Assembly: GCA_035221665.1 (NCBI GenBank)
Contig: CM069131.1
Location: 172,174,001 to 172,238,000 of the forward strand
DNA: 64,000 nt
Origin: Okamejei kenojei
Taxonomy: Eukaryota
Reading direction: 5' to 3'
The notes under the pieces were generated by a model. The model saw only the letters and a list, made by a program, of their open reading frames with translations. It was not told where the DNA came from and did no database searches. Below, piece by piece: positions 1-61,812 of the stretch (its first letter is position 1; each line of letters begins with the position of its first letter). Both the position numbers and the translations under genes were made by a program.

Positions 1-2395
1 TGAGTACAGCAGGGGGCTGAGCACGCATTAAGGTGCTCCCGTGCTGATTGTTATCGAGGCTGACACATTTCCACCAATACGAACAGACTGTGGTCTGTGA
101 ATGAGGAGGTCGAAGATCCAATTGCAGAGGGATGCGCAGAGACCCAGTTCTGCGAGTTTGGTAACCAGCTTGGAGGGGATGATTGTGTTAAATGCCGAGC
201 TGTAGTCAATGAATACCTGACATATGAGTTTTTGTTGTCCAAGTGGTCCAGAGCGGAGTGGAGGGCCAGTGAGATCGCATCCACCGTTGATCTGTTGTGG
301 CAGTAAGCGAACTGCAGTGGGTCCAGGTTTTTGTCGAGGTAAGAGTTGATTTGCGCCATGATCAATCTCTCGAAGCACTTCATCACCACAGGCGTTAGTG
401 CCACAGGTCGATAGTCATTGAGGCACGTCACCTTGCTCTTCTTGGGCACCGGTATTATTGATGCCCTTTTGAAGCAGGTGGGAACCTCAGACCTCAGAAG
501 TGACAGGTTGAAAATGTCCGTAAAAACTCCAGCCAGTTTTTGGGTCCGCACAGGTTTTTAGAACACGACCAGGTATGCCATTAGGTCCAGACGCTTTTCG
601 AGGGTTCACCCCTCTGAAGGATTTCCTAACATCGGCCTCTGTGACTGAGACTGAAATACCATCACAGCGAATGAGGGCTCGGGAAGGCACATCGGTGTTC
701 TCCCTATCAAAGCATGCATAAAATGCATTGAGCTCATCAGGGAGTGATGTATCGCCGACATCCGAGCTGCCTCCTGGTTTCGCCTTGTAGGAGGTGATTG
801 CATTCCGTCCCCGCCACAGCTGCCGACCATCTGTCTCAACCTCCAGTTTGGAGCAGAACTCCCTTTTGGCCTTTTTGATGGCCTTACCAAGGTCGTATCT
901 GGACTTCGTGTAGACCACTGTATCATCAGACATGAATGCCCTGTGTCTGGTCTTCAGAAGAGTGCGGATCTCACAGTTTATCCAAGGTTTCTGATTGGGA
1001 AACACTCGGAAGGTTTTTGTAGGGATGCAGTCCTCCACACATTTCTTAATGAAGTCTGTAACGACTGTGGCGTATTCATTCAAATCCGTTGCTGAGTCCT
1101 TGAACATTGCCCAGTCTACAGACTCCAAACAGTCCTATAGTTGTTCCTCTGCCCACCCCCACCCACGACCAGCTCTCTACTGTCCTCACCTCTGGGGGTG
1201 CGCTCTTTAATTGCTGCCTGTAGGCAGGAAGAAGCAGCACTGCGGTATGGTCGGATTTACCGAAGTGAGGGCGAGGGATAGAACGATGGGCATTCTTGAT
1301 GGTGGTGTAGCAGTGGTCGAGGGTGTTTGGTCCTCTGGTGCAGCAGGAGACATGTTGGTGGAAGTTGGGGAGTGATTTCTTTAGGTTTTCCTTATTCAAG
1401 TCCCCAGTAATGGTGGTAAATGCCTCGGGGTAAGACGTCTGGTGTTTGTTGACCACGGCGTGCAGCTCCTCCAGTGCCAGACGGACGTCTGCCTGCGGTG
1501 GGGTGTAGACCGCGGTCAGGATGATGGAGGTGAATTCCCTCGGAAGGTAGAAGGGACGGCACTTCACTGCCAGATGTTCGAGATGTGGAGAGCAGGAGTT
1601 GGACAGGACTGCCACGTCTGAGCACCACGCAGAGTTGACTATGAAGCAGACGCCCCCTCCTCTCCCTTTCCCCGATGCCAGTGTACGGTCCATGCGGTGG
1701 ATGGAGAACCCTTCAGGCTGGACCCCTGAGTCTGGGGAGCTGGGGCTGAGCCATGTCTCTGTGAAACAGAACACAGCGCATTCCCTCAGCTCCCTTTGAT
1801 AAAGCAGTCTTGCCCTTGTCCTCCACTTTATTTTCAAGGGACTGTACATTGGCCAGTAGGATAGTAGGGAGAGGGGGCCGAAGTACCCTGCGCTTCAGTC
1901 TGACCTGAAGTCCTGCCCGCCGGCCACGTTTCCGGACACAATAGAGGCTTCCCCTTTGTTTCCAGGTACTGGGTTGACTGTATCTGCTGTTTCTGCGGAC
2001 CAGAGCTGCAACGGGAATTCCCTCACGGACGGCAGCTCCAGCTCCGTAACGAAAGGGGGTTCCCTCAGAGTCAGCAGCTCTAGCTTCATTTTTTCTGGGA
2101 TATCCAGCCTGTCGGCCCTGGAGGTCATCCTGGGGTTTCCAGGTGCCGTACCTGGGATCCTCAGTCGGGTCGGGAGTTTCTCAGCCAGCGTGGGAAAGTT
2201 TAAAGTCCGGGGCTCCCCGCAGCTGCGGGAGATCGCGAAATTTCCAACGCTTGCAGCTGCCCAAGCAGCCTGTCTGAAACGGCACCGATTACTGCCGTTT
2301 CCCTGATGCAGGTGAGTTGAGAGAAGTTGTAGGTAATTCTTTTCTGTTCTGGTGCTCTGCAAAGGTCGCCGCAGGCAGGCGCCATCTTGATATAC
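1..2395 (-). mobile_element. Rex1/Babar-clade LINE, 5' part (APE endonuclease plus N-terminal RT), frameshifted; continues left of the window
   Basis: Overlapping minus-strand ORFs give APE motifs (CFTETWL, GDLN, TRGPNTLDHCY, SDH) and RT motifs ([53 protein letters not shown]) typical of Rex1. 5' end is near CAAGATGGCGCC at 2389-2378. Confidence 0.93.
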
Positions 2396-2419
2396 GTAGC
2401 TCACAGTTTTACGGAATAG

Positions 2420-3010
2420 TTGGTGAATGGCCTGATGTCATCTTTCCACATCCTTAATGACCTAGAGCATGAGTGGCTAAGAACGAGCATTCAACTGATT
2501 TCAGCCAGAACTGTTGAGTGGGATGACCCATCTTCCTCTTCAAATCCCCCACCATCACAGAAGCCAGTATTTTAGTTCAATGGTTCAATTAATGATACTT
2601 TATTGTCACATGTACCTAGGTGCAGAGAAATTATTTTGCATACAGTTCAATAACAATTATTAAAAATGAATTTCACTATGCATTATTCCACGTGTTGGAA
2701 AGAAATAGCTGAGAGAATTGTGCAGAACATGACAGGGCAGCACATTTGACATTCCAGAATTAACAGTACCTTAAGCCAAGTGGTTCTAGCACTGTTATTA
2801 CATTGTCATCAACAACCAGCAGATGTGGTACAAAGGCATGTCACATCCAGTCCACATAATTACCGTCTCTTCTTTGTTAACAATAAGGTGTTGGAAAGTG
2901 TCATCAAGCAGCACTTAATCACCAATACTCATTGTGTTTTTCCAGGGTAACTTGAATCTTGATCTCATTAGACTCATGGACCAAACATGGGTCATAAACC
3001 TGATCTTCAG
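2420..3010. mobile_element. Old LINE RT relic (+) with a Rex1-type 3' tail fragment (-) at ~2575-2650
   Basis: Degenerate similarity to the LINE at 32860-34900. TTTATTGTCACATGTACC is the reverse complement of the tail motif at 5416-5430. Confidence 0.5.
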
Positions 3011-3808: not shown

Positions 3809-3984
3809 GTAATTGAATGTACTGAAGGTTATATTGGTTCGTGAAAGCTGCAGCTGCCATGGAGGCCTATGAATAAGAACAGGGATGCAGTGCGACAACC
3901 AGGGAGTGCATGGGGAATATTGACACGGGGAATAAAAAGCCTCCAATGCTTGCCAGTGTGAGCAGTGGAAAAGAAACAACTACC
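3809..3984 (+). other. FAM53A: Probable 5'UTR part of the first coding exon of FAM53A
   Basis: A pyrimidine-rich acceptor ...tttgacag ends at 3808, and sequence runs uninterrupted to the conserved ATG at 3985. The acceptor choice is inferred. Confidence 0.6.
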
Positions 3985-4062
3985 ATGGTAACACTAATCA
4001 CAGAAAAGTTGCAGAACCAAAGCCTGCAGGATATGACGTGCCAAGCCTACGGCATTAATCTG
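3985..4062 (+). CDS. FAM53A: FAM53A first coding exon (MVTLITEKLQNQSLQDMTCQAYGINL)
   Basis: accATGg Kozak context. Matches the recalled FAM53A N-terminus MVTLITEKLQSQSL. Donor CTG|gtaaga, phase 0. Confidence 0.93.
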
Positions 4063-20971: not shown

Positions 20972-21026
20972 CACTCAACTGACAAACTGAATGAAAGTGG
21001 CAGCTTGTTTCCATTTGAAATTGAGG
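20972..21026 (+). CDS. FAM53A: FAM53A second coding exon (HSTDKLNESGSLFPFEIE + 1 nt), absent from the ORF track
   Basis: Polypyrimidine tract and ttcag acceptor, G|gtaagg donor. Phase 0 in and phase 1 out fit both neighbours. Resembles the recalled human segment YSAETLNKSGRLFPLEL. Confidence 0.9.
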
Positions 21027-22618: not shown

Positions 22619-23796
22619 TAACTTGTAATTTTTTTGCAATCTGGGCTTTCAGCCTTTGAGTGTCAGCCAGTGAAAAGCCACCTTGCAGCTTTTTAATCAA
22701 CAGTGGAGGAAAGACAGATAGGCAAGATTTAAGAAAAAAGGAGGGACAAAATGAAAGAGCGAAATGAAGGCTAATCTACAAATCGGGTAAACTTAATGGT
22801 AGGCAAGTAAAAGTGAAGAATAAAACTTTTTTCAAAATAATTACTACTATCATGGTTTATATTAATGTTTCTAGTTACATTTTACTCGGTGGGGAACTTA
22901 ACGCAGTTAATTGGCTCATAATAATGGGATATTCCTTGGATCTGTAGCTAATTTAAAATTGTGGCTAGATGGTGCATTTGGCCAAATATTGCCCAGTGAC
23001 AGTAATGTACAGTAATACCATACTAAAGAAAAGTGTATTAATTATTACCACCTCTGTGAAATCCTGAGCCTAGTATTCTCTCCTTAAATTAATGTTGATG
23101 TTTCATCATAAAATGTGCTCTGCTTGAATTAACTTGCTATCCAAAATTATGTGCACATTATTTTGGTTTGAGTGGAAATGTAAACTTTTTCTTCTGTTCA
23201 AATTGGGATAATTAACACTTTGCTTGAATTTGATTGAAGGTTTACCGTAATTCTTAAAGGTAACGGATCACAGAACCAGTTTTACATAGCCCGATGTTTA
23301 CATTTATGACAATTTTTTAACGTGCACTTTATCCTTGCCTTTCTCAAAGTGGATAATAATTTAGGGAAAAGAGGAATAGGCCAGTTGCCATATTACCCGT
23401 AGAATTCTTGTAGTGCTTCAGTGCCTTTATTTTCAGTGACATTTAAATGTGACGCACTTAATCCAGAAAGAGAATGTATTTCATCTAGTATGGTTAAAAT
23501 GTGTACAATACAGTATTTGCATGTGCTGGCCAAGGATGTACAGTGTGCACGACTAATTGAAACAAGATGCTTCGTCCCCTTTTTTCCCCACATCCTAATT
23601 AAGATAGAAAATAAAGGTTGACTGATGAGATGGCCTTGTTGATTTAGTTTTATTGGTTAATGATGTTCCAGAATAAGGTGTCATTGGACCATGTGTTGTA
23701 TGTATGAATAATCATGGATGTATCCATTGTCCATTGCAAATTGTTCATGCAGAGGCTTGAGAAATTATTAACCATGTTTTCCCTTTTCTCTAACAG

Positions 23797-24593
23797 AAGG
23801 AAGTCCATGGGCAGTAGTTAATAGGACTTGTCCGATTAAAGCTGAAACAAACCGTAATGTGGCTTTTCCTTTTTCAACGTGCCTAGCTGACCACGTTGGG
23901 TTACAATGGCAGATCGGCATGAATAAAACCTCTGTCTCTGGCTGGATCAGTGAGCTGAATCTCAATGAGAACTCGAGTGTTCCCTTGGCCCCTCCCACAA
24001 AACGGCATTGTAGGTCTCTCTCGGAGCCTGATGAATTGTCCCGATGCCGCTCCCCATGGAAACCCTGTAGTTCCAGGGTCTGGACTCCTGTGTCGAAACG
24101 TCGGTGCAACAGTGGTGGCAGCGCAACTTTGCAACGCTGCAACAGCCATGGAAGTGCCACACTGGAACGAAGCACAAGCATCAATATTCTCCAGCATACC
24201 AGTAAACACACGCTTTCTCTCAACAACAGTATATTTAATATCACCAGCTTCAATACTTCACCAGTACCAAGGCCCTCCTCTGCCAGCAGCGGTTTTGTAG
24301 ACAGCAGCGAGGGAAGCACATCAAGTGTTCGTTGGAACTCTACAGGACCCTTTGATTTTAACCCAAGGCGGCGGCTGTCACTTTCGCAGGAGCACATTAC
24401 AGAGACGGCAAATCTCTTGCCTTCAGCGAGCAGCTCGCCCACCTCCACGCCAGAGTTGAGCCGCCGGCAGGGATTGCTGCGATGCCGCTCCCAGCCTTGC
24501 GTGCTGAATGAAAGGAAATGTGGGCTAAAACGCAGGCGGGAGGAAGATGTCAGGTGGACACGGCCCTCTTTAGATTTCCTAAAGATGACCAGA
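23797..24593 (+). CDS. FAM53A: FAM53A large third coding exon
   Basis: Acceptor ttttctctaacag|, donor AGA|gtaagt. FAM53 motifs APPTKRHCRSLSEP, VWTPVSKRRC, PRPSSASSGFVDSSEGS, LLRCRSQPCVL and KRRREEDVRWTRPSLDFLKMT are closest to FAM53A. Confidence 0.96.
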
Positions 24594-27500
24594 GTAAGTA
24601 GGGGAATGTCTTTTTTCCAATAATGCTGATAAATGCTAACATCATAGTTTACATTTCGGCTGAAATGGTGTATCAATAGTTTATTTGCCAGAATTATGCA
24701 AGATGATGTAAGTTAGCATTTTAAACAACTCCGTTCTGAGTTCCAGCTTGGCTTGTCAAAGGTGCATTCTAGCACTCTAGTCTAATTAAAATACTTTATA
24801 TAATCCACACTTATTTTTCTAGGGTCTGGCCGTCAACATTCAGTTTAAAATGATATTGCAAAGTTTGTTCAGCTCCATGCCCTGGACCTCTGGCCCTAGT
24901 TTTATAAGTTTTAAAAAGCTTTGATCGAGGGATGTTTTATGATGCAGTTATGTACAAACTCGCAATTATGCAACAATGATGTTGACTGTAAGTGCTAATT
25001 AAGGCTATCAGCTATGTCGAAAAAGAAAATCATCACGGGGTTTGAGGCAGCTATGACGAGCATGGTGAGCTGAATGACAAGTCTTATTTGCCACAAATGT
25101 GTAGGCATTCTTTGTTCCAGTCATTCTCCTGTCTAGGAGTCGTCAGTATGCAATTTGCAAAATCTTTCTGGTAAACGAGTATGAAATGTGCAGCCATTCA
25201 ATGGATAAAATGCTCGGCTGCACAGCGGGTCTCTCCATACCACACTGTTTGAGCCCAGGGGTTCATGGGACCTGAAACCAGGCATCTTTCGGTGTGGTAA
25301 CGAGGCAAGATGTTCTTGTCTGTGGGAATAGTTCGATCTTAAATCATGCACCATAATGATGCTGTCTACTGTAGCGGTCATTGGTAGCCTGATCCACATA
25401 AGGCCTCAGAGGAGTTTAGAACAAAGCACCTTTCAAATAGATTTAAAAACATGGAAGAGATATCAGATTATCTCAAGTTGGTTTTCTCTCTCAATTTTGT
25501 GCACAAGTTGGGAAGCCATTTTGTTGGCAGTACCAGTAAATGATTCAGAGTTTGCTGGTCTCAAGCCTGTCCTCATGTTTTCTGTGTTTCAATGTTTTCT
25601 CATTGTTTAATATGCTTCTTCATCAGCAGATGATAGGAAGCATTTAGCGAAAGTGGAATGTAAGCTCCTTCCTGTTGCCTGAATTCATTTCAAGTGTTTT
25701 ATACCAATATTTTCCCTTTTTGGTACTTTGTTGGTTAGATTTTTTGCTATTCTTGCCTTCACACCTTTGATACAACATCCTACTTGTAGCTGCTGAGCTG
25801 CCTCAAATGTGGCTATTCCAAGTTTAGGCTGGGCAGCTTACTGTCACTTAAAATACCCGAAGGGAAAAATAAGTGGATGAATATGGCAATGGGATTTGCT
25901 GAAACATGATAGGAAGGATATGGAGAATAAATATGGTAGTTTAGCCTAGCTCAAAGACTTGTACTCTGAAACTACCATCTATGGAAATTGATATTTCAAG
26001 TTATTAACAATGTAGAGATTTTCTGACTCGCCACTCATCTGCTTTGTCAATATTAAGATCCACTCTGCAAATTGCTTGGCAGCCTGAGTCAAATATAGAT
26101 GGAGGAATTGGATTTCCAAACTCAGAACTACTCAGAACCACAACTGGCCACACTAAACCAAACCAAACTAAGATGATGCTAACTGCAATCGTCACCAGGC
26201 AGTGTTTTTGCTGTTGAGTGATACTGAGTTTCAGTAAACCCCAAAGTATTGAGATTAAGGAGGTAAACTTGGTGTTTGACGTTGCAGTGCGTATCTGGAA
26301 ATGACTGCAGTTGTTAGTCCAGATCAATACTGAACGGTGGCCCTGAGGCAGCATTCCAGACCCAGTCCTCCATATGCATGTGGTGGAAGTAGAGATATTT
26401 AGGCTAGGCTTAGGCTATTCTCCAGCAAAATGAAAGTTGACCATCTCTCCTCAACTGAATGAAACCTCGTGTAGGTTTAATCATTTTGGGATTGTCATTG
26501 ACCAGCACTCAATTTGTGTGCAACAACCATGCAACCATTCATAGGCTGAGGGATCATGCAGCATGCAATTTACACAAATCCCCTTCCTCTATCTGCAGAA
26601 CACAAGTTAAAAGCACAGAAAATACCATTTTAACACTTGTGTCAGAATGAAGTAGTTGTATTTGTCAGGATGGGAAAAGCTGCAATAACACTCAAGTCTC
26701 AAAATTGTGCAGGGCAAAGCCGACAGCATAATTGAATCTGTTCTTTTCCACGCCGACGTGGGCAGACATGTAGTTAAGTCTCTGTCAAATGTGCACTGTC
26801 AAAGACATGAATCCTCGTCACTTGCCGATTGGACACCATTCTGGTCCCAGAACTACATCCAATAAAACTGAGGTTCAGGGCACCAATATTTTTTTAGGAA
26901 TGGGTTATAAATGTCAGGTTTGCCTATGATTGCAATATGCAGTATTCTTTTTCACTGCCATTCAGTACTGTATTTAAATCCACTGAAATGAGTACTTGAC
27001 TGGTAAATAGAAATTGAAGTTATAAACTAAATCATTTATGTTGCTCAGGTCCATTTTACCCATTATTGCTCAAGTTGTGCCATACCTCGCTTCTCGCATC
27101 ACGAGATGGACCATGCGACTTCCTTCGGCAAGGTTACGGTTGGAAGGGACTGTTTCCTAATTAACTCATCATGTGACCGTCCTGCCGAGCTCCTGCTCCC
27201 TGGACCTGGAATAAGTGGAGTTTTAACTACCTGCCACTGGAATTTTCTTGGCCATCCTTGCAGCATGTCTACATTCCACCCCACAAACTACAGACCGCTA
27301 CATTTAGCCTTGAAATGAAGTATAGCAAGGCCTTGTTCATAATAGCTGAGAACTTTGATTAGGTACATCTCAAGAATGTGCTACCCAAATACTAGCAGCA
27401 CATCACTTGTCCTTCCAAAGTGCAAACAGCCTTGACCACTACTACACAACCATCAAAGACTCCTACTACTCACCAACCACACTTTAGAAGCTGATCATCT

Positions 27501-41914: not shown

Positions 41915-43498
41915 CAGTGCCCTCCATAATGTTTGGGACAAAGACCCATTTATTTATTTGCCTCTCTACTCAATTTGAGATTTGTAATAGGAAAAAAATC
42001 ACATCTGGTTAAAGTGCACATTGTCGGATTTTAATGAAGGCCATTTTTATACATTTTGGTTTCACCATGTAGAAATAACAGCTGTGTTTATACATAGTCG
42101 TCTTCCCCCCCCCCCCCCCCACACACATTTCAGGGCACCATAATGTTTGGGACACTTGGCTTCACAGTTGTTTATAATTGCTCAGGTGTGTTTAATTGCC
42201 TCATTAATGCAGGTGGAAAAGAGAGCTCTCAGCATCCAGTCTTTCCTCCAGTCTTTCCATCACCTTTGGAAACTTTTATTGCTGTTTATCAACATGAGGA
42301 CAAGTTGTGCTAATGAAAGTCAAAGAAGCCATTATGAGACTGAGAAGCTAGAATAAAACTGTTAGAGACAGCAGACAACCCTTCGGCTTACCAAAATCAA
42401 CTTACTAACCACAATAGCACTGGCAGACCAAGGAAGACCATCACAGCTGATGACAGAAGAATTCTCTCTATAATTAAAGAAAAATCCCCAAACATCTGCC
42501 CGCCAGATCAGAAAGACTCTCCAGGAGTCAGGTGTGGATTTGTCAATGACAACTGTCCGCAGAAGACTTCATGAACAGAAATACAGAGGCCGCAAAAATA
42601 GGATGACCAGGTTACAGTTTGCCAAGAAGTACTTAAACGAACAACCAAAGTTCTGGAAAAAGGTCTTGTGGACAGATGAAACGAAGATTTACTTATATCA
42701 GAGTGATGGCAAGAGCAAAGTATGGAGGAGAGAAGGAACTGCCCAAGATCCAAAGCATACCACCTCATCTGTGAAACATGGTGGTGGGGGTGTTATGGCC
42801 TGGGCTTGTATGGCTGCTGAAGGTACTGGCTCACTTATCTTCATTGATGATACAACTGCTGATGGCAGTAGCATAATGAATTTTGAAGACACATCCTATC
42901 TGCTCAAGTTCAAACAAATGCCTCAAAACTCATTGGTCGGGGGTTCATTCTACAGGAAAACAGTGATCCCAAACATACTGCTAAAGCAACAAATGATTTT
43001 TTCCAAAGCTAAAAAATGGTCAATTCTTGAGTGGCCAAGTCAATCACCCGATCTGAACCCAGCCTTTTATATGCTGAAGAGAAAACTGAAGAGGACTAGC
43101 CCCCAAAACAAACATACGCTTAAGATGGCTGCAATACTGGCCTTGCAGAGCATCACCCAAGAAGACACCCAGCAACTGGTGATGTCCATGAATCGCAGAC
43201 TACAAGCATTCATTGCATGCAAAGATGATGCAACAAAATACTAAACATGACTACTTTCATTTACATGACATTGCTGTGTCCCAAACATTATGGTGCCCCA
43301 AAATGGGGGTCTATGTATAAACACTGCTGTAATTTCTACATGGTGAACCCAAAATGTTTAAAAATGGCCTTTATTGATATCTGACGATGTGCGCTTTAAC
43401 CACATGTGATTTTTTTTTCCATTACAAATCTCAAATTGTGGAGTGCAGAGGCAAATAAATAAATAATGGGTCTGTGCCAAACATTATGGAGGGCACTG
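41915..43498 (+). mobile_element. Tc1/mariner DNA transposon, IR/DR type, near full length, transposase pseudogene
   Basis: CAGTGCCCTCCATAATGTTTGG...CCAAACATTATGGAGGGCACTG|TA. ~230-bp IRs with inner repeats. VLWTDETK, VKHGGGGVMAW, WPSQSPDLNP. Confidence 0.95.
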
Positions 43499-54555: not shown

Positions 54556-56230
54556 ATTCTCTCTTCACTTCGAATGTTGGGCAGTATTTTTTTCAGACTG
54601 AATATTGATTTTTTAAAAAAAAATCCATTTAATTCTAATAAATGCTGATTTTAGTAAAGGCACCTATTCGTCCTATGACAGAATGCCAATGCATTTTAGA
54701 AGGGGAGGCAGACAAGAAAAGTTGCATCTTTTAGGTCTCTAACCTTGGATGATTTCACTTGGAGCAAATCAATGCCGTCCACAGTTTGTTTCAGCAATTC
54801 ATTTCTTGGGGTGTTATGGGAGGGGTTGCATATTGCTATGAGGAATGCTGGCAGAGGAGAAAATCTCTCTATGCTTGTTTTTATTTTTAAGTACGCCAGC
54901 TTGAAGTCCGTTGTGTGGCTATTAAACGACATCTGCATCCATTTAGTTGTGATATGCTTCATTCTCTTATAGCATGCTGGGCCTTGCAATTGAGACGCAT
55001 TTCAAGCCATAACAATTACAGTGACAGTGAGAGGGCATCACAAGGATACAAGTAATCAGAGTAAAAATATTAAGACAAAAACTCTGCATGACAATTGTTG
55101 CAATCAGCATTGTTTAATTAAAATTATAACAAGATACCTTTATGTATATATCAGCGTTAACCTCTGTTTTTGGTGCACTCGAAAGCACTTACAGTGCCCT
55201 CCATAATGTTTATTTGTCTCTGTACTACACAATTTGAGATATGTAATAGAAAAAATCTATTACAGCTGATGACAGATGAATTCTCTCGAAAATAAAGAAA
55301 AATCCCCAAACCCCTGTCTGACTGATCAGAAACGCTCTTCAGGAGTCAGGTGTGAATTTGTCAATGACCACTACCCGCTGAAGACTTCATGAATAGAAAT
55401 GCAGAGGCTAATCTGCAAGATGCAAACCACTGATTAGCTGCAAACATAGGATGGCCAGGTTACAGTTTGCCAAGAAGTACTTAAAAGATCAACCACAGTT
55501 CTGGAAAATGGTCTTGTGGACAGATGAGATGAAGATTAATTTATATCGGAGTGATGGCAAGAGCAAAGTATGGAAGAGAGGAGGAACTGCCCAAGATCCA
55601 AAGCATTCCACCTCATCTGTGAATCACAGTGGTGGGGGTGTTATGGCCTGGGCATGTATGGCTGATGAAGGTACTGGGTCGCTTATCTTCATTAATGATA
55701 CAACTGCTGATGGTAGTAGCATAATGAATTCTGAAGTGTATCAACGCATCCTATCTGCTCAAGTTCAAATGAATGTCTCAAAACTCATTGGCCGGCGGTT
55801 CATTGTACCGCAAGACAATGATCCCAAACATACTGCTAAAGCAACTAAGGAGTTTTTCAAAGCTAAATGATGGTCAATTCTTGAGTGGCCAAGTCAATCA
55901 CCCGATCTGAGCTCATTTGAGCATGCCTTTTATATGCTGAAGAGAAAACTGAAGGGGACTAGCCCCCAAAACAAGCATAAGCTAAAGATGGCTGTAATAC
56001 AGGCCTGACATGGCATCACCAGAAAAGACACCCAGCAACTGGTGATGGCCATGAATCACAGACTTCAGGCAGTCATTACATGCAAAGGATATGAAACAAA
56101 ATACTAAACATGAATACTTTCATTTACATGACATTGCTGTGTCCCAAACATTATGGTGCCCTGAAATGGGGGGACTATGTATAAATACTGCTGTCTATGT
56201 ATAAATACTACATGGTGAAACCTAAATGTA

Positions 56231-56364
56231 TCTTCTTGCATAGGGTGTGCACAGCCTAAAGTTGTAAAATAACTTGTTCTGTTTGATCTTCCGTTTGTGC
56301 ACACCGGGTTGATTGCATTCGTTGAAACAGGGTGGACCGCGTGAAGGTTGTAATCTCCCACCCC
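56231..56364 (-). mobile_element. 134-bp retroposon with an HDV-like ribozyme head (copy 1), inserted in the Tc1 right IR
   Basis: TSD ACC(T/A)AAATGTA at 56220-56230 and 56365-56375. GAA-type tail. Second copy at 61068-61197. Confidence 0.88.
56311..56364 (-). ncRNA. Predicted minimal HDV-like (CPEB3-like) self-cleaving ribozyme
   Basis: P1 GGGGUGG/CCACCCU (G1-U wobble), P2 GAUUACA/UGCAAUC, P3 ACC/GGU, L3 UUCACGC, GU, J4/2 ACGAA. Confidence 0.8.
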
Positions 56365-56519
56365 ACCAAAATGTATACAAATGGCCTTTATTAAAATCTG
56401 ACAATGTGCACTTTAACCAGATGTGATGATTTCTATTACAAATCTCATTGTGGAGTACAGAGGCAAATAAATAAATGATGGGTATTTGTCCCAAACATTA
56501 TGGAGGGCATTGTAAGTAA

Positions 56520-56645
56520 GGAATGTGCAGGGAGGAACTGCAGATGCTAGTTTACACCGAAGAAAGACACAGAATGCTGGAGTAACTCAGTGGGACAGGC
56601 ATCATCTTCTGGAGAAAAGGAATTGGTGACATTTTGGGTTGAGTC
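56520..56645 (-). mobile_element. Penelope-pLTR/hammerhead-type short unit
   Basis: GGAACTGCAGATGCT...GCTGGAGTAACTCAG...GGTGACATTTTGGGTTGAG. Confidence 0.75.
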
Positions 56646-56689
56646 ACTTTTTTCAACCTTCATCAGATTCAACGCAGGAAGTACATTTA

Positions 56690-57012
56690 AAGTTATGTGA
56701 GATGTAGGAAACACTGCAGTCAATAAGCATACAGCCAGTTCTCTCAAACAACATTGTGAGCATGAAGTTTGGCTTCAGTAACGTTACTTGAAGGGTTAAT
56801 ACTGACCTCATTTAAAATAAAATGGTATGGGATATCTGGTGGGCCAGACGGAGGAGGGAGACTTGGTTAACCTCATCGACAGGCAACACTTTCAACAGTG
56901 CAATGACCATTCATTGATTTGGGCAATCTTGGCATCCATTCTGAAAACTGGAGTGGGACTTGAATGCACAATTCTGATTTAGATAACAAATGCCACTAAG
57001 TTACTGCTGACA
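56690..57012 (-). mobile_element. Ancient DeuSINE (SacSINE1/AmnSINE1-like) relic
   Basis: ATGTAGGAAACACTGCAGTCAAT...CACTTTCAACAGTGCA...CTGGAGTGGGACTTGAA resembles the recalled Deu domain and tRNA head. Confidence 0.6.
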
Positions 57013-58658
57013 TTGATAATACCAGGGCGATAGAAATTTCAGTTGTTAAAACAGTTTAGTAAAATGTTCTTTGTCAATTTTCCACCCAAAATCATTAATA
57101 CTAGCTGGGGCCCAAGCACCCATTCCCTGTGGTGCTATCTGCCATATGGGGAAGAATACCTGTTTGTTCCTGTTATCTGTCTCTTGGCTCTCAACTAGTT
57201 TTTAATCCCATTCCAGTATATTAACCCAATCCTATCTATGTGCTTTAGTGTTATACACTAACCATGGGCCTTATCTAAAGTATTCTGAATGTGGAAATAC
57301 ACCACAAATTCCAGAAATCAAAATACCTTGATTAAATATTTATAAGCAAAATACTGAGTGCTAACAATCTGAAACAATAACAAAAAATACAAACACTAAG
57401 CAGGTCAAACAGCATTCAAGAATGGTTAGTTTTTCAGGTCAATGAACTTTCAATAAACTGCTTGGTGATTGACAGAATTACATGTATTGAACTATCCATG
57501 TTAGAAGTCAATAGCACTGCAGAATTGATTCCGTTTTTACATAACCAAACCTGTGTGAGAGAATCTTGTCCACTCACCCAGTGGCTAAAGATTTGAATCT
57601 CGTAAAATGTCTCTCTACATAGCTCCCTTGCTTGTTTAAAAAACCTGTAGCGAATATTATAATAATTGCATGCTACTAATAGTTTAATTTTACCTGACTA
57701 ATTTTGAACTCTTGTCACAATTCTAAGTTTGGAAAGTAAAAACATAGGTGCTGAAATAGCAATTTGGGTGTGGAGTTTAAGTCTGCTATTTAAATATCAC
57801 TTCAGATTTCAGAAAGTAATCATGAAGAGCTGTTAGCAATCAAGTTATCAGTCATTTATTTAGATGTATATTGTTGCTTTGCGTTCGTTTTGCATTGACC
57901 TTTGACTTCATGGCACAGATCCACGGGTGAGTTTCCACTGGAACTATTCGCTGTAGTGGAAAGTTTTAATATTTATTCTCCTTGGTTTGCATTCAAATTG
58001 TACAGCTGTCGTTTTAACCAAACCCTTCTCTTTGCAATGTTGTGGGTTTTGTTTCAGGATCTTGCATTTCACATCATTGTGGTTTCAAAGTTCAGCTTGA
58101 TATTGGCTCAGCAAAACCTTTGCTAAGCAAAACTAGAAAAGCCTGTGCTGAAGTCATAAAGAAACTAAGTTCACAGGCAGTTTTTTCAAATTTAAATCTT
58201 TGTTTGGGATGTTTGTGATGTTTTTGTGGGCTTTTATACAGAATGGCTTTCCTACAAACCAAATTAATGCCAAACCTTTGAAGGTTACAGTGTAATATTT
58301 CAAAGCCCAACAAAGGTGAATTAATACCAGTCCAGTGCAAGCTGTGGAATTTTGATGTTTTGCATTTTAAAAGGTGAATACCAATGGAGCCTCCTCCAGT
58401 GTCAGTGCTGGCAGGTTCACACAGCCCACAGTTCATTGTTCTAACCCCTGGAGTGCTAAGAATGAGCCCAGCTGGGTTAATTGAGTGCGAGACCAGACAC
58501 TGGATTGGTTGCGAAGAATGATGGCTGCAAAGCTGGGCTGGGAATGAAATAGAAAGCAATGACTGACCTACATCCTGCTCTTTTGAAAGCAACACCAAGC
58601 AGCTCTAACATGGTGAGGTCAACAAGTGAAGCAGCTGGCATGAGACCTCCTAGAGACA

Positions 58659-58686
58659 CGGGGGGGGGGGGGGGGGGGGGGGGGGG
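58659..58686. repeat. Poly-G run (~27 nt); similar poly-C runs at ~5141, ~9161, ~14060 and ~42106
   Basis: Directly visible. Confidence 0.9.
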
Positions 58687-60049
58687 TCAAAGAGAACTTT
58701 GTAAATAGTGTTGTTTTACTATATTTTCTCATTGCAAGGTGAATATCTCTTAATGAAAGTGATTCTATGCAGTATTTTGGAGGATATTTTCATAAGAATG
58801 CAAAAGCTACCCTGTCATTTTTATTCATCAGGTTACTTACTTTATCATAACGGACAGTTTTATTGTAATAGCCAACGACCCAACTGACTGAAATGCTGGA
58901 AGAAGTATGTAGTCATTGTGAAAGTATTGAGTAAACGGTTTATGTAGCTACTTTTGGTATTAGTCATCGGCCTTTTAACGTACTACGAAGGCACTCTTAG
59001 AAGTCTGTGCTGAATTCAGGCGGAGTGATTTATGAAGTACACTGAATAAGAAATGTGTTCTAGGATTTCAGAAAGGTCTATAAAAAGATTTTACAGCTTG
59101 TGAACATCTATTGAGGAACTGGAGAGAGAGACTATTATACTACACAGTTGCTTAAAAGTTGCCTTAGCTGAACTATCAACTATCTCCCCCTCTTGTCCTT
59201 GCAAATAAAACTAGCTTTACATCTGTTTAACATCCAAATGTATTTTAAGATGATCAAACGGTTAACCTCTTTTTACATTGTTTTAAAAAGAAAAAAGTTT
59301 GCGACTATTTCTCCAGAAGACTGGAAAAGTAAAAGCGATGCGATTGGTTTAATTGCATTTTTCAGGCCAATTGTATGCTTTTGCTTATGAACATAGAATA
59401 TTTCAGATATAAATTTTGTGGGTGGTTTTGGTGCCTTCCCCTTTTCCTTTAAATTTCTTCCAGTCCAATAAACTAAACTAAACTAAGCCCTTAAATTTCT
59501 TCCAGAATATAATATGTCAACATATGGCTGGTGTGATGGTTTCTGCGTGACAGATCTTATCAGGGCTGACTGTGATGCAGTAAACTTGACCACCTATCTC
59601 GGTTTAAAGCTCTATTTTTACAAGCACTATTTAGTGTTGCCAAACCTTTTATACAGCAGTTAACTTTGCTAGTCCTGGTTTGCCATTGTTAAAGCAAGCC
59701 AGTACCAGCATATTCTGGCTCGCTCTGCTGAAACTGAAGCAAAACAGGCCACTATGAATGTATGTACGGTTCAGTATTAACCGTTGAATGGCAACTGAAC
59801 GCTGATGGCAGTGAGGAACCGACAGATCGGCCTTAACAGCATTATGTTACAGACAATTCTTCAAAATTAAGTTATCAGGTTGCATTTTGAGCAGAATAAT
59901 AACCATTTTGCATCAGTACAGAAACATAATTGTTCAATTAACTATTTAAAATCCCATGACTTCAGCTCCCTGAAGCTTCAGGACTGTACTTGCCATGTTT
60001 ACATTTCCAAAATGCCTGACATAGCCCATATCTTTTGATAAGGTTTCTG

Positions 60050-60830
60050 AGCCTAAATTCGGGAACAGTTTCTACCTCACTGTTACCAGACTATTGAATA
60101 GTTCTCCCATAAGCTAGTTCCGATCTCTCAACCTACCTCATGTGGGGCTTGCACATTTTAATGGTCTACTTTCTCTGCTTATATAATACTGTAACAGGAT
60201 ATTCTGCACTCTGGTATTTTTCTCTTTGCACTACTTGTACTTGTGTATGTGCACTACTTGTACTTGTGTATGTGCACCTATGTGCACATTTTTCAGGATT
60301 TGCTAACTTGCAAGTACCATTAACTTCATGCAAGTGCCTGCAGATGCAATTAATGTTGATTGCAAATGTTAGTTATTTTAATACTTCACTGTTTTGACCA
60401 AGACATCCCGACATACCTTTCAGCAAAACTGTTATAACATAAGAGTTGTGATCACCCTACTCATCCTTAGGCTGACAACCAACTATTTTGTCATGCTAAC
60501 TTTAAGGGTCTAAGTTGGTGTCTGACGGTATGACACAAACTTATTCATCTCGTTCCTGCGCAATAGCTCATTGTTGTAAAACTTGGTGTCAACGGCAAAC
60601 TTAAAGATCGAGCTACAGTTGTACTAGACATCGTCATGGATGTACAAGGAGCGGAGTAAGGGACTGATCACACAACCCTGAAGGACACCAGTGCTCGGAG
60701 TCAGGATGGAGGAACTGTGACCAATTCTAACTGAGTCTGCCAGTCAAGAAGTCCTGAAGCCAGTTAGCAGATGGATGTCCCAAGCCATGGTCCAAAGGTT
60801 TAGGGATGAGCTTATTCGATATCATTAGGT
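60050..60830. mobile_element. Rex1-type tail (+, ~60050-60280, with a short tandem duplication) and RT fragment (-, ~60500-60830)
   Basis: TTCGGGAACAGTTTCTACC tail. Minus strand reads GVLQGCVISPLLRSLYIHDD...KFAVDTK. Confidence 0.6.
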
Positions 60831-61067
60831 TGTTCGCTGCTCTCCCTCAATTTCCCTTTCCATCCCATGGCCGTAATCAGACAAACATGCTTCTCCCTCT
60901 TGTACATGTGCATAGGGGCTGCGGTAGGAATGTGGGACAGGAATTGTTGGGGGTAAACCTTGGACATGTTTAAACATCAGAGTACTAACATTAAAAAACC
61001 AGCCACTTCATTTTGAATTGACCACCATTTTGGTGTACTGCATATTGTATTGCATGCATTTTCCTGT

Positions 61068-61197
61068 CTTCTTTCGTGTGGCGTGCACAGCCTAAAGTTG
61101 TAGGACAACTTGTTCTATTTGATCTTCCGTTTGTGCATGTCGAGTTGATTGCATGTCTAAACAGGGCGGACCACGTGAAGGTTGCGATCTTCCACCC
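61068..61197 (-). mobile_element. 130-bp retroposon with an HDV-like ribozyme head (copy 2)
   Basis: Perfect 13-bp TSD TGCATTTTCCTGT at 61055-61067 and 61198-61210. Colinear with 56231-56364. Confidence 0.9.
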
Positions 61198-61289
61198 TGC
61201 ATTTTCCTGTAGTTTTCTTTTACTTATACTTGTTTTATTATTTTTGCGATCCAACCCTAACTTAAAAGATTTTGTTTGACCTTAAGCTT

Positions 61290-61812
61290 ATTCACAAGTT
61301 CACACGTTATAGTAGAATTATGCCATTCGGCCCATCAAGTCTACTCCGCCATTCAATCATGGCTGATCTCTGCCTCCTAATCCTATTTTCCTGCCTGCTC
61401 CCCATAACCCTTGACAACTGTTCTAATTAAGAGTTTCTGCCTTAAAAATATCCACTGACAGCCCTCTGTGGCAATGAGTTCTACTGATTAACCACCAGAT
61501 GACTAAAGAAGTTCCTCCGCGCCTCCTTTCTAAAAGGCCGCCCTTTAATTCTGAGGCTACAACTTCTGGTCCAAGACTCTCCCACCCGTGGAAACATCCT
61601 TTCCACATCCACTCTATCTATGCCTTTCATTATTCTGTAAGTTTCAATGAGGTCCCCCATCAACCTTCTGAAGTCCAGTGAGTAGAGGCCCAGTGCTGTC
61701 AAACGCTCATATCCTAACCCAATCATTCCTGGAATCATTCTTGTAAACATCCTCTGGACCCTCTCCAGAGCCATAACGACCTTACTCAGATGTGGGACCC
61801 AAATTTGCTCAG
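61290..61812 (-). mobile_element. CR1 3' fragment
   Basis: LERVQRMFTRMIPG...LGLYSLDFRRLMGDLIETY. Confidence 0.88.

Follow-up and report, generated by a model that had tools for sequence, protein, structure and literature searches.

The insert and its host gene

The window analysed here, a stretch of 64,000 nucleotides from the genome of Okamejei kenojei, contains exons of the gene FAM53A and, in the last intron of that gene, two copies of a short retroposon, called the mini-element in what follows. Each is flanked by a target-site duplication (TSD).

3910..4062 and 20972..21025, plus strand: FAM53A exons placed by homolog mapping
23778..24596, plus strand: large coding exon of FAM53A (PF15242, E 1e-102; named protein matches)
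83271..83603 (window-equivalent, beyond the window), plus strand: last coding exon of FAM53A, placed by homolog mapping
56232..56364, minus strand: copy 1, old subfamily, with G+1 and J4/2 present and one P2 mismatch
56365..56376 and 56220..56231: TSD of copy 1, 12 bp with one mismatch
61068..61197, minus strand: copy 2, young subfamily, 130 nt, 95–97% identical to 39 other best genome matches
61055..61067, plus strand: TSD copy on the 3' (tail) side of copy 2, identical at 13 of 13 bases to 61198–61210
61198..61210, plus strand: TSD copy on the 5' side of copy 2; base 61198 is also ribozyme +1 (A, not G)

The exons were placed by mapping six homologs onto 164 kb around the window, and the large exon finds its best named matches in FAM53A of ray (95%) and sharks (90–91%). 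Because all FAM53A exons lie on the plus strand and the last coding one falls at 83271–83603, the last intron, which is 58.7 kb long (to window-equivalent 83270), houses both minus-strand copies in antisense, the orientation given in an earlier note on this DNA. A third copy, structurally intact and in sense, lies at window-equivalent 94136–94270, 10.5 kb beyond the stop codon of FAM53A.

On the minus strand, copy 2 starts with the G-rich strand of P1 and ends in a short (AAG)n tail. It matches copy 1 at 111 of 133 nt (83% identity, E 4e-35, match span 56231–56363), and the two belong to different subfamilies. Their flanks differ, so they are separate insertions; with its perfect 13-bp repeat and flanks of its own, copy 2 is the second, independent insertion that the earlier note had taken it to be. 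The statement that the copies agree in start, length and tail fails on length, which is 130–131 nt in copy 2 against 133 nt in copy 1. The perfect 13-bp TSD stands as regards identity, but the A at 61198 occupies the +1 position of the predicted ribozyme. If G+1 is absent, the TSD measures 13 bp; if it has become A, the TSD measures 12 bp. Contigs of three other organisms cross both copy 2 junctions, extending from the unique flank 22–25 nt into the element, and no empty-site joint occurs among the 15 of 38 joints listed. As 22–25 nt is shorter than the 31-nt bridging rule, this is only a hint that the insertion is shared with other organisms. The ribozyme of copy 1 has one broken P2 pair and one L3 change; with this pair broken and a mismatch in its TSD, copy 1 is not a clean intact control. 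Taken alone, copy 2 is ordinary and probably dead.

The window holds other repeats, whose labels we take from the look of their motifs: a broken LINE that opens the window (1–2440, minus strand) and bears motifs of APE and RT, and two Tc1/mariner-like transposase fragments in the FAM53A intron (42474–43244 and 55412–55870, both plus strand). Between the two copies, 57900–60500 is repeat-poor; it contains a sequence resembling a 3' splice site near 58057, has polyA signals at 59204 and 59467, and could be an alternative last exon of FAM53A.

A dispersed family of mini-elements

A 33-place pattern from the 3' part of the mini-element has 4,863 exact matches in the genome (2,400 + 2,463), and a 28-place pattern from the ribozyme core has 8,590 (4,301 + 4,289), the reversed control giving none in either case. 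Of the 58 copies that the first list places in the initial 20 Mb of contig 1, 25 recur on the second, and recapture puts the family at ~19,900 copies, an estimate that is likely a lower bound. A DNA search with the 61-nt 3' part gave no matches, its words being too common. Sequence related to the mini-element occurs in contigs of several other organisms.

The 158 copies that were aligned comprise best-match and pattern loci, their flanks and the FAM53A region; ~40 of them were chosen for similarity to copy 2 or for the J4/2 deletion described below. A TSD of at least 8 bp with at most one mismatch flanks 134 of the 158, against 2 of 470 shuffled pairings, and the TSD length distribution, a check proposed in the earlier note, has its mode at 11–12 bp. 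The insertions are independent and TSD-flanked, and the mini-element has no coding capacity. Among 30 copies chosen by their 3' end alone, 28 begin at the predicted cleavage G. G occupies +1 in 137 of the 158 aligned copies, and where A is found there it follows a C in 7 of 9 cases (copies starting at position 1 or 2), which fits CpG decay. The discrete mobile family proposed from two copies is borne out by the 4,863 and 8,590 exact matches and the 134 TSDs.

The aligned copies fall into a young (104) and an old (54) subfamily. Copies picked by their 3' end lie at a median of 2.3% (n = 57, young) and 3.5% (n = 47, old) from the reference, distances that are biased low by the exact-match selection of copies. 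That the family is active now finds no backing in these data: the median difference of young copies from the reference is 2.3%, and each of the 11 long copies of the parent LINE that were examined is broken.

At one locus (L215:1225-1359) a young mini-element with its own TSD sits inside the ORF start of a copy of the parent, LINE F, so mini-elements moved after that LINE F copy had inserted. A second mini family, H, of ~165 nt, is found at L368–L371 (G000:C1:7839731, C31:24532819, C1:7367673 and C1:8173675). Its head is CPEB3-like and lacks P4, its ends are predicted to form a 5'-3' helix of their own, and its tail is (AAG)n. The ~95-nt element at L362 (G000:C24:11947458), in which a head of the family G type is joined almost directly to an (AAG)n tail, is possibly a third mini family. 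Two pairs of loci on contig C7, L012/L013 and L109/L112, have identical flanks in opposite orientation, which points to local segmental duplications.

The parent LINE

Both ends of the mini-element are found in LINE F, and copy 2 divides accordingly.

61129..61198, minus strand: part from the 5' end of LINE F (nt 1–72; intact copy against LINE F, 87–95% over 1–72)
61068..61108, minus strand: part from the 3' end of LINE F, namely last ORF codons, stop, 3' UTR and (AAG)n tail

LINE F copies that keep their 5' end start with the first 72 nt of the mini-element (87–95%), followed by a 5' UTR and the APE domain. At the other end, a pattern guessed from the last codons of families A–E (see below) has 343 exact matches, and nearly all of the 100 LINE F 3' ends listed read W-M-S-T-L-D-L-Q-L-stop and then run into the mini-element's own 3' end; the 3' part is 90% identical to L201 over 42 nt. 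About 20 nt in the middle are only partly traceable to LINE F. Since the parent shares the first 72 and last ~40 nt, the mini-element is, to judge from sequence, a bipartite non-autonomous LINE of the SIDE type.

Fragments of LINE F carry APE and RT domains (Pfam). The closest homolog, P0121, is a single ORF of 1,019 aa with PF00078, PF14529 and PF03372 only and no RNase H, and long LINE F copies cover up to 991 of its 1,019 residues. No intact parent ORF was found among the 11 long LINE F copies examined (out of 33 N-terminal matches), each having 3–17 stops, so no working driver was found. In L201, L211, L232, L218, L161 and L188 the ribozyme-bearing 5' end of LINE F is inverted relative to the body, an arrangement that resembles twin-priming inversions.

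The search ran from a weak endonuclease match at L109, a degenerate single-ORF LINE with a tail of the same kind, to five families, A–E, and from these to F. Families A–E each begin with a G-rich HDV-like fold, and A, B and C, whose 3' ends were found, end in (AAG)n. As direct parents these Vingi-like families are ruled out, as their ends differ. The 30 best PF14529 loci gave a two-ORF Nimb/I-like family without the mini-element head. The labels Nimb and CR1 at other loci are presumed from the look of the motifs: L091 (G000:C2:28224000-28230500) holds an apparently intact two-ORF Nimb/I-like LINE with a 1,276-aa open frame, and L092 and L093 apparently intact two-ORF CR1-like LINEs with 1,000-aa open frames.

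Vingi elements have a compact single ORF with APE and RT and no RNase H (PMC13708176), and P0121 fits this description. In a tree of APE domains, F groups with P0121 (100/99); the backbone is unresolved, a long Nimb-like branch is drawn inside, and the tree holds no named Vingi reference. The head of sister family G closely matches, by eye, the 5' ends of Vingi-2_Gav, Vingi-2_SPur and Vingi-1_BF in the supplement of PMC5786205, and the head of F, compared in the same way, has only L3, the bases after P1 and J4/2 in common with the named Vingi 5' ends. From its anatomy and the resemblance of its sister's head, LINE F probably belongs to the Vingi clade.

The predicted ribozyme head

The 5' part of the mini-element can be folded as a small self-cleaving ribozyme, which in copy 2 is damaged.

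61147..61198, minus strand: predicted P4-less HDV/CPEB3-type ribozyme, damaged (from sequence, alignments, sister-family covariation and a weak RF02682 alignment of an intact copy)
61198–61192 with 61169–61163, minus strand: P1
61189–61183 with 61153–61147, minus strand: P2, one C-A mismatch
61182–61170, minus strand: P3 and L3
61162, minus strand: G of the single-pair P1.1
61155, minus strand: putative catalytic C
Between 61155 and 61154, minus strand: J4/2, 2 nt missing

In the family head, P1 pairs positions 1–7 with 30–36, P2 10–16 with 48–54 and P3 17–19 with 27–29, and the fold is completed by an L3 of 7 nt, one isolated pair between C22 and G37, six looped bases where P4 would lie and C44-(U/G)-A-A. 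Comparison of eight heads from seven families (F being counted twice, as LINE and as mini-element) supports this predicted HDV-like fold: P1 and P3 are paired in 96.3% of 80 cells, and 19 cells carry two-sided changes. None of 500 shuffles was as good, and slid registers gave 47–59%, a lenient control because the structure was derived from the same sequences. By eye, P2 is fully paired in all seven families, with a different sequence in each. The earlier note had held that the two copies have their P2 mismatches at different positions and that the consensus P2 is perfect, and both points are right: copy 2 has C for T at position 13 and copy 1 A for G at 14, and the majority strands GATTGCA and TGCAATC pair, with 147–156 of the 158 copies agreeing at each position.

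A single-pair P1.1 is sufficient in CPEB3. In the alignment, the C of the C22-G37 pair is present in 156 of the 158 copies and the G in 154, the same bases as in the RF00622 consensus. The putative catalytic C, which opens a J4/2 of four bases, is present in 147 of the 158, and in minimal HDV-like ribozymes the catalytic C is likewise the first base of J4/2 (PMC10879173). Variants above 10% occur only at head positions 8, 32, 41, 42 and 45, where they break neither a pair nor the catalytic C. As the variants that spread are confined to positions that keep the fold, the source copies would have needed a working ribozyme.

The loss of 2 nt from J4/2 in copy 2 is real. Its young subfamily reads CUAA rather than the CGAA of copy 1, so the lost bases are UA. 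Genome-wide, 8,590 exact matches have J4/2 intact and 9 have it deleted, on both subfamily backgrounds, which marks the deletion as a recurrent dead end and rules it out as an amplifying sub-lineage. Pairing rules divide the 158 copies into 66 that are intact, 45 with mild and 47 with severe damage. The severe class includes copy 2, which lacks G+1, two bases of J4/2 and one of the P2 pairs and is probably inactive, as had been proposed.

A P4 stem is absent from the mini-element, with only six bases between P1.1 and the catalytic C; P4 is dispensable in minimal members, and the region is longer in sister families A, B, C, D and G. Rfam at its cut-off gave no matches in the 64-kb window, and a permissive scan of 56000–61400 gave 10 weak matches, none on the element. 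The best Rfam score of an intact copy is 16 bits, to RF02682 (cut-off 44), and no family reaches its cut-off. Pseudoknot-free folding energy is unremarkable (z 0.5 and -0.9). A GU-UUCG-AC hairpin in the head could sequester the catalytic C. Position 29 is changed from U to C in 6 of the 158 copies (L031, L032, L035, L037 and L043 among them), which are otherwise full-length; the change turns the first P3 pair into A-C and is possibly a minor propagated variant.

A predicted helix between the two ends

Directly after the ribozyme and directly before the tail lie two segments that are predicted to pair.

61132..61141, minus strand: 5' arm of the predicted long-range helix, pairing with 61080–61089
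61080..61089, minus strand: 3' arm (duplex tests)

At least 8 of the 10 pairs are kept in 145 of the 158 mini-element copies. For each of the LINEs A, B, C and F, the best partner of the 35 nt that follow P2 is the terminal 35 nt of the same family, the own-family means of -13.9, -15.2, -20.7 and -15.3 kcal/mol being lowest in 4 of 4 rows, in B narrowly. Shuffled 3' ends did better than single LINE examples of A, B, C and F in 104, 21, 0 and 13 of 300 trials, better than mini F in 4 of 500, mini H in 16 of 500 and a cleaner LINE F pair in 1 of 500. Mini F pairs with the end of H at -15.2, against -17.7 with its own. Taken together, these tests give moderate support to a predicted pairing of the two ends in every family tested.

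Nature and origin of the mini-element

Ribozyme-headed, two-ended derivatives of LINEs are established (PMC3414825, PMC4035085, PMC5786205), and origin by internal deletion of a Vingi-like LINE makes the mini-element a known kind of element, a point that the earlier note had missed. Like the Vingi-1_EE derivatives, Bov-A and RTESINE (PMC5786205), it has only the 5' and 3' ends of a LINE, no ORF, no small-RNA head and a microsatellite tail. Such bipartite elements occur in four clades, RTE, Ingi, Vingi and R2, and the section on them in that paper does not place Vingi among the ribozyme-bearing clades; here there is a predicted P4-less ribozyme head, in a cartilaginous fish, at ~20,000 copies. 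The R2 SIDEs of Drosophila likewise join a 5' HDV-like ribozyme to a LINE 3' end and are mobilised in trans, but they are rDNA-specific and rare, whereas the mini-element is dispersed, abundant and driven by an APE-type LINE (PMC3414825). NARTc, RIME and SIDER of the L1Tc/ingi clade are short sister-clade derivatives with an HDV-like ribozyme at +1 that is active in vitro; they are trypanosomatid, and their 77-nt Pr77 has P4 and promoter activity, in contrast to the 54-nt predicted head without P4 (PMC4035085). Minimal HDV-like and theta ribozymes also have a shortened P4/L4 and the catalytic C first in J4/2, but are phage and metagenomic, often beside tRNAs, rather than the head of a vertebrate retroposon (PMC10879173). 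In the literature covered, which is mostly open access, there is no account of this mini-element family, of a Vingi ribozyme or of a Vingi origin of CPEB3.

Observed in the copies and families compared are an anatomy in two parts, a parent LINE, TSDs, a constant 5' start and a fold that covaries. Copy 2 is very probably a non-autonomous retroposon, itself likely inactive, that is made of ~72 bases from the start and ~40 from the end of a single-ORF LINE, probably of the Vingi clade, and that has a predicted minimal HDV/CPEB3-type ribozyme as its 5' end. A copy would be transcribed inside a host read-through RNA, and its ribozyme would cut just 5' of G+1 and so release a 5' end of unit length. 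The stretch that follows the ribozyme directly would pair with the one directly ahead of the tail, the endonuclease and RT of the LINE would bind the LINE-derived ends in trans, and target-primed reverse transcription, primed at the (AAG)n tail, would leave TSDs of 11–12 bp. The losses in copy 2 (G+1, a P2 pair and half of J4/2) likely came after or during insertion, and an antisense copy 2 would be unable to cut FAM53A pre-mRNA in any case.

The 28 full-length starts among 30 copies would equally be produced by an internal promoter starting at +1, the ribozyme being slow or secondary. Pr77 of L1Tc is both promoter and ribozyme (PMC4035085), and a head without P4 would suit this explanation too. 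It is nevertheless unlikely to be the main cause of the fixed 5' end: seven families share the pairing pattern and not the P1/P2 sequence, as is to be expected of an RNA structure more than of a DNA motif, and the variants that have spread avoid paired and catalytic positions. That the mini-element is an ordinary SINE, with an independent small-RNA head, a borrowed LINE tail and a ribozyme-like fold arising by chance, might be argued from the lack of an Rfam ribozyme match at cut-off and the unremarkable pseudoknot-free folding energy. This is hardly credible, as the head is LINE F's own 5' end, which contradicts it, and the fold covaries across the heads of sister LINEs.

The weight of these observations rests on the family and its testable selection signal rather than on copy 2. 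With this family, Vingi would join the LINE clades that carry a 5' ribozyme, and a 54-nt, P4-less predicted ribozyme would sit at ~20,000 places in a vertebrate genome, where the numbers of intact and broken copies make selection against intronic self-cleavage directly testable given gene annotation. The predicted helix and ribozyme would define the minimal cis elements of a clade that already supplies UTRs for RNA-templated gene insertion (PMC13708176).

Orientation in introns

The earlier note had suggested that sense copies able to cut pre-mRNA are purged. The T-over-A skew of repeat-masked flanks, read on the element strand, was used as a proxy for the transcribed strand. In the introns of FAM53A, a calibration on one gene, the sense-strand skew is +0.065 and positive in 8 of 8 bins; strand asymmetries in fish are unlike those of mammals (PMC2927911), and the correlation between left and right flanks is only r 0.26. 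Of the 158 copies 11 were left out, 3 in the calibration region and 8 with <600 unmasked bases, and the remaining 147 have a mean skew of -0.012 ± 0.005. By class, the skew is -0.025 in intact copies (43 of 60 negative), -0.018 in mildly damaged ones (27 of 42) and +0.011 in severely damaged ones (20 of 45). It follows ribozyme damage (rho 0.24, p 0.004; a permutation test of intact against damaged copies gives p 0.023) and shows no link to mutations outside the ribozyme (rho -0.06), and the sign pattern persists 2.5–5 kb away.

The trend is fragile. It loses significance when only single-copy loci are taken (rho 0.16, p 0.11), when repeats are left unmasked (p 0.12) and when the padding is 1 kb (p 0.15), and most of the loci come from one 36-Mb stretch and are not independent. 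Copies of the old subfamily show no bias (25 of 50 negative), a first test on 52 short loci gave a mean of -0.010 (p 0.36), GC skew gave no signal, and control repeats, only 16 in number, have a skew of -0.006 ± 0.013. Neighbouring copies share their orientation in 79 of 139 cases (p 0.07), and in 36 of 69 in the list with intact J4/2.

An intronic ribozyme lowers splicing if it is fast but not if it is slow (Fong 2009, cited in PMC10919898), which makes a purging mechanism plausible. If cleavage here is slower than splicing, intact sense copies would be tolerated and the antisense pair in FAM53A would be chance. Such neutrality is a serious possibility, if a little short of an even one: slow ribozymes leave splicing unaffected, the p values of 0.11–0.15 in the variant tests, the even split of the old subfamily and the weak co-orientation of neighbours agree with it, and so does the intact third copy lying in sense beyond FAM53A. 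Against it stand the ordering of the skew by damage class, the flat result for mutations elsewhere in the element and the persistence of the pattern at 2.5–5 kb. On the flank-skew proxy, removal of working ribozymes from the sense strand of introns is somewhat favoured; the suggested purging keeps its trend by damage class, but the trend gives way with choice of loci, masking and padding.

Sister family G and the CPEB3 ribozyme

The mammalian CPEB3 ribozyme (RF00622) shares with the mini-element an identical L3, the bases after P1, the single-pair P1.1 and an intronic setting, but it is single-copy, in sense and conserved, whereas the mini-element is multicopy, mobile, without P4 and below the RF00622 cut-off (PMC10919898). 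Sister heads come close to matching the CPEB3 ribozyme and so provide a possible origin for it. A broader proposal, tentative and with the odds slightly against it, would be that the Vingi clade begins with an HDV/CPEB3-type ribozyme and a family-specific 5'-3' helix, that mammals domesticated a Vingi 5' end as their CPEB3 ribozyme, and that the ~20,000 copies form a natural experiment in which selection by the host clears intronic sense strands of working ribozymes and leaves damaged ones in place. Such a ribozyme and helix, if real, would explain why Vingi LINEs spawn two-ended mini-elements. Vingi remnants are present in the human genome (PMC5753468).

In the present genome, 30 of 59 scored sites exceed the RF00622 cut-off, the top one at 66.8 bits. 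Heads of family G score 53–67 bits (L344:1512-1575, L347 and L349/L361; G000:C14:40547617, C27:9511932 and C14:7155335). In L344, L347 and L349, 3 of the 15 best loci, the head is followed ~130 nt on by the start of a Vingi-like APE domain, and one of these three continues through RT.
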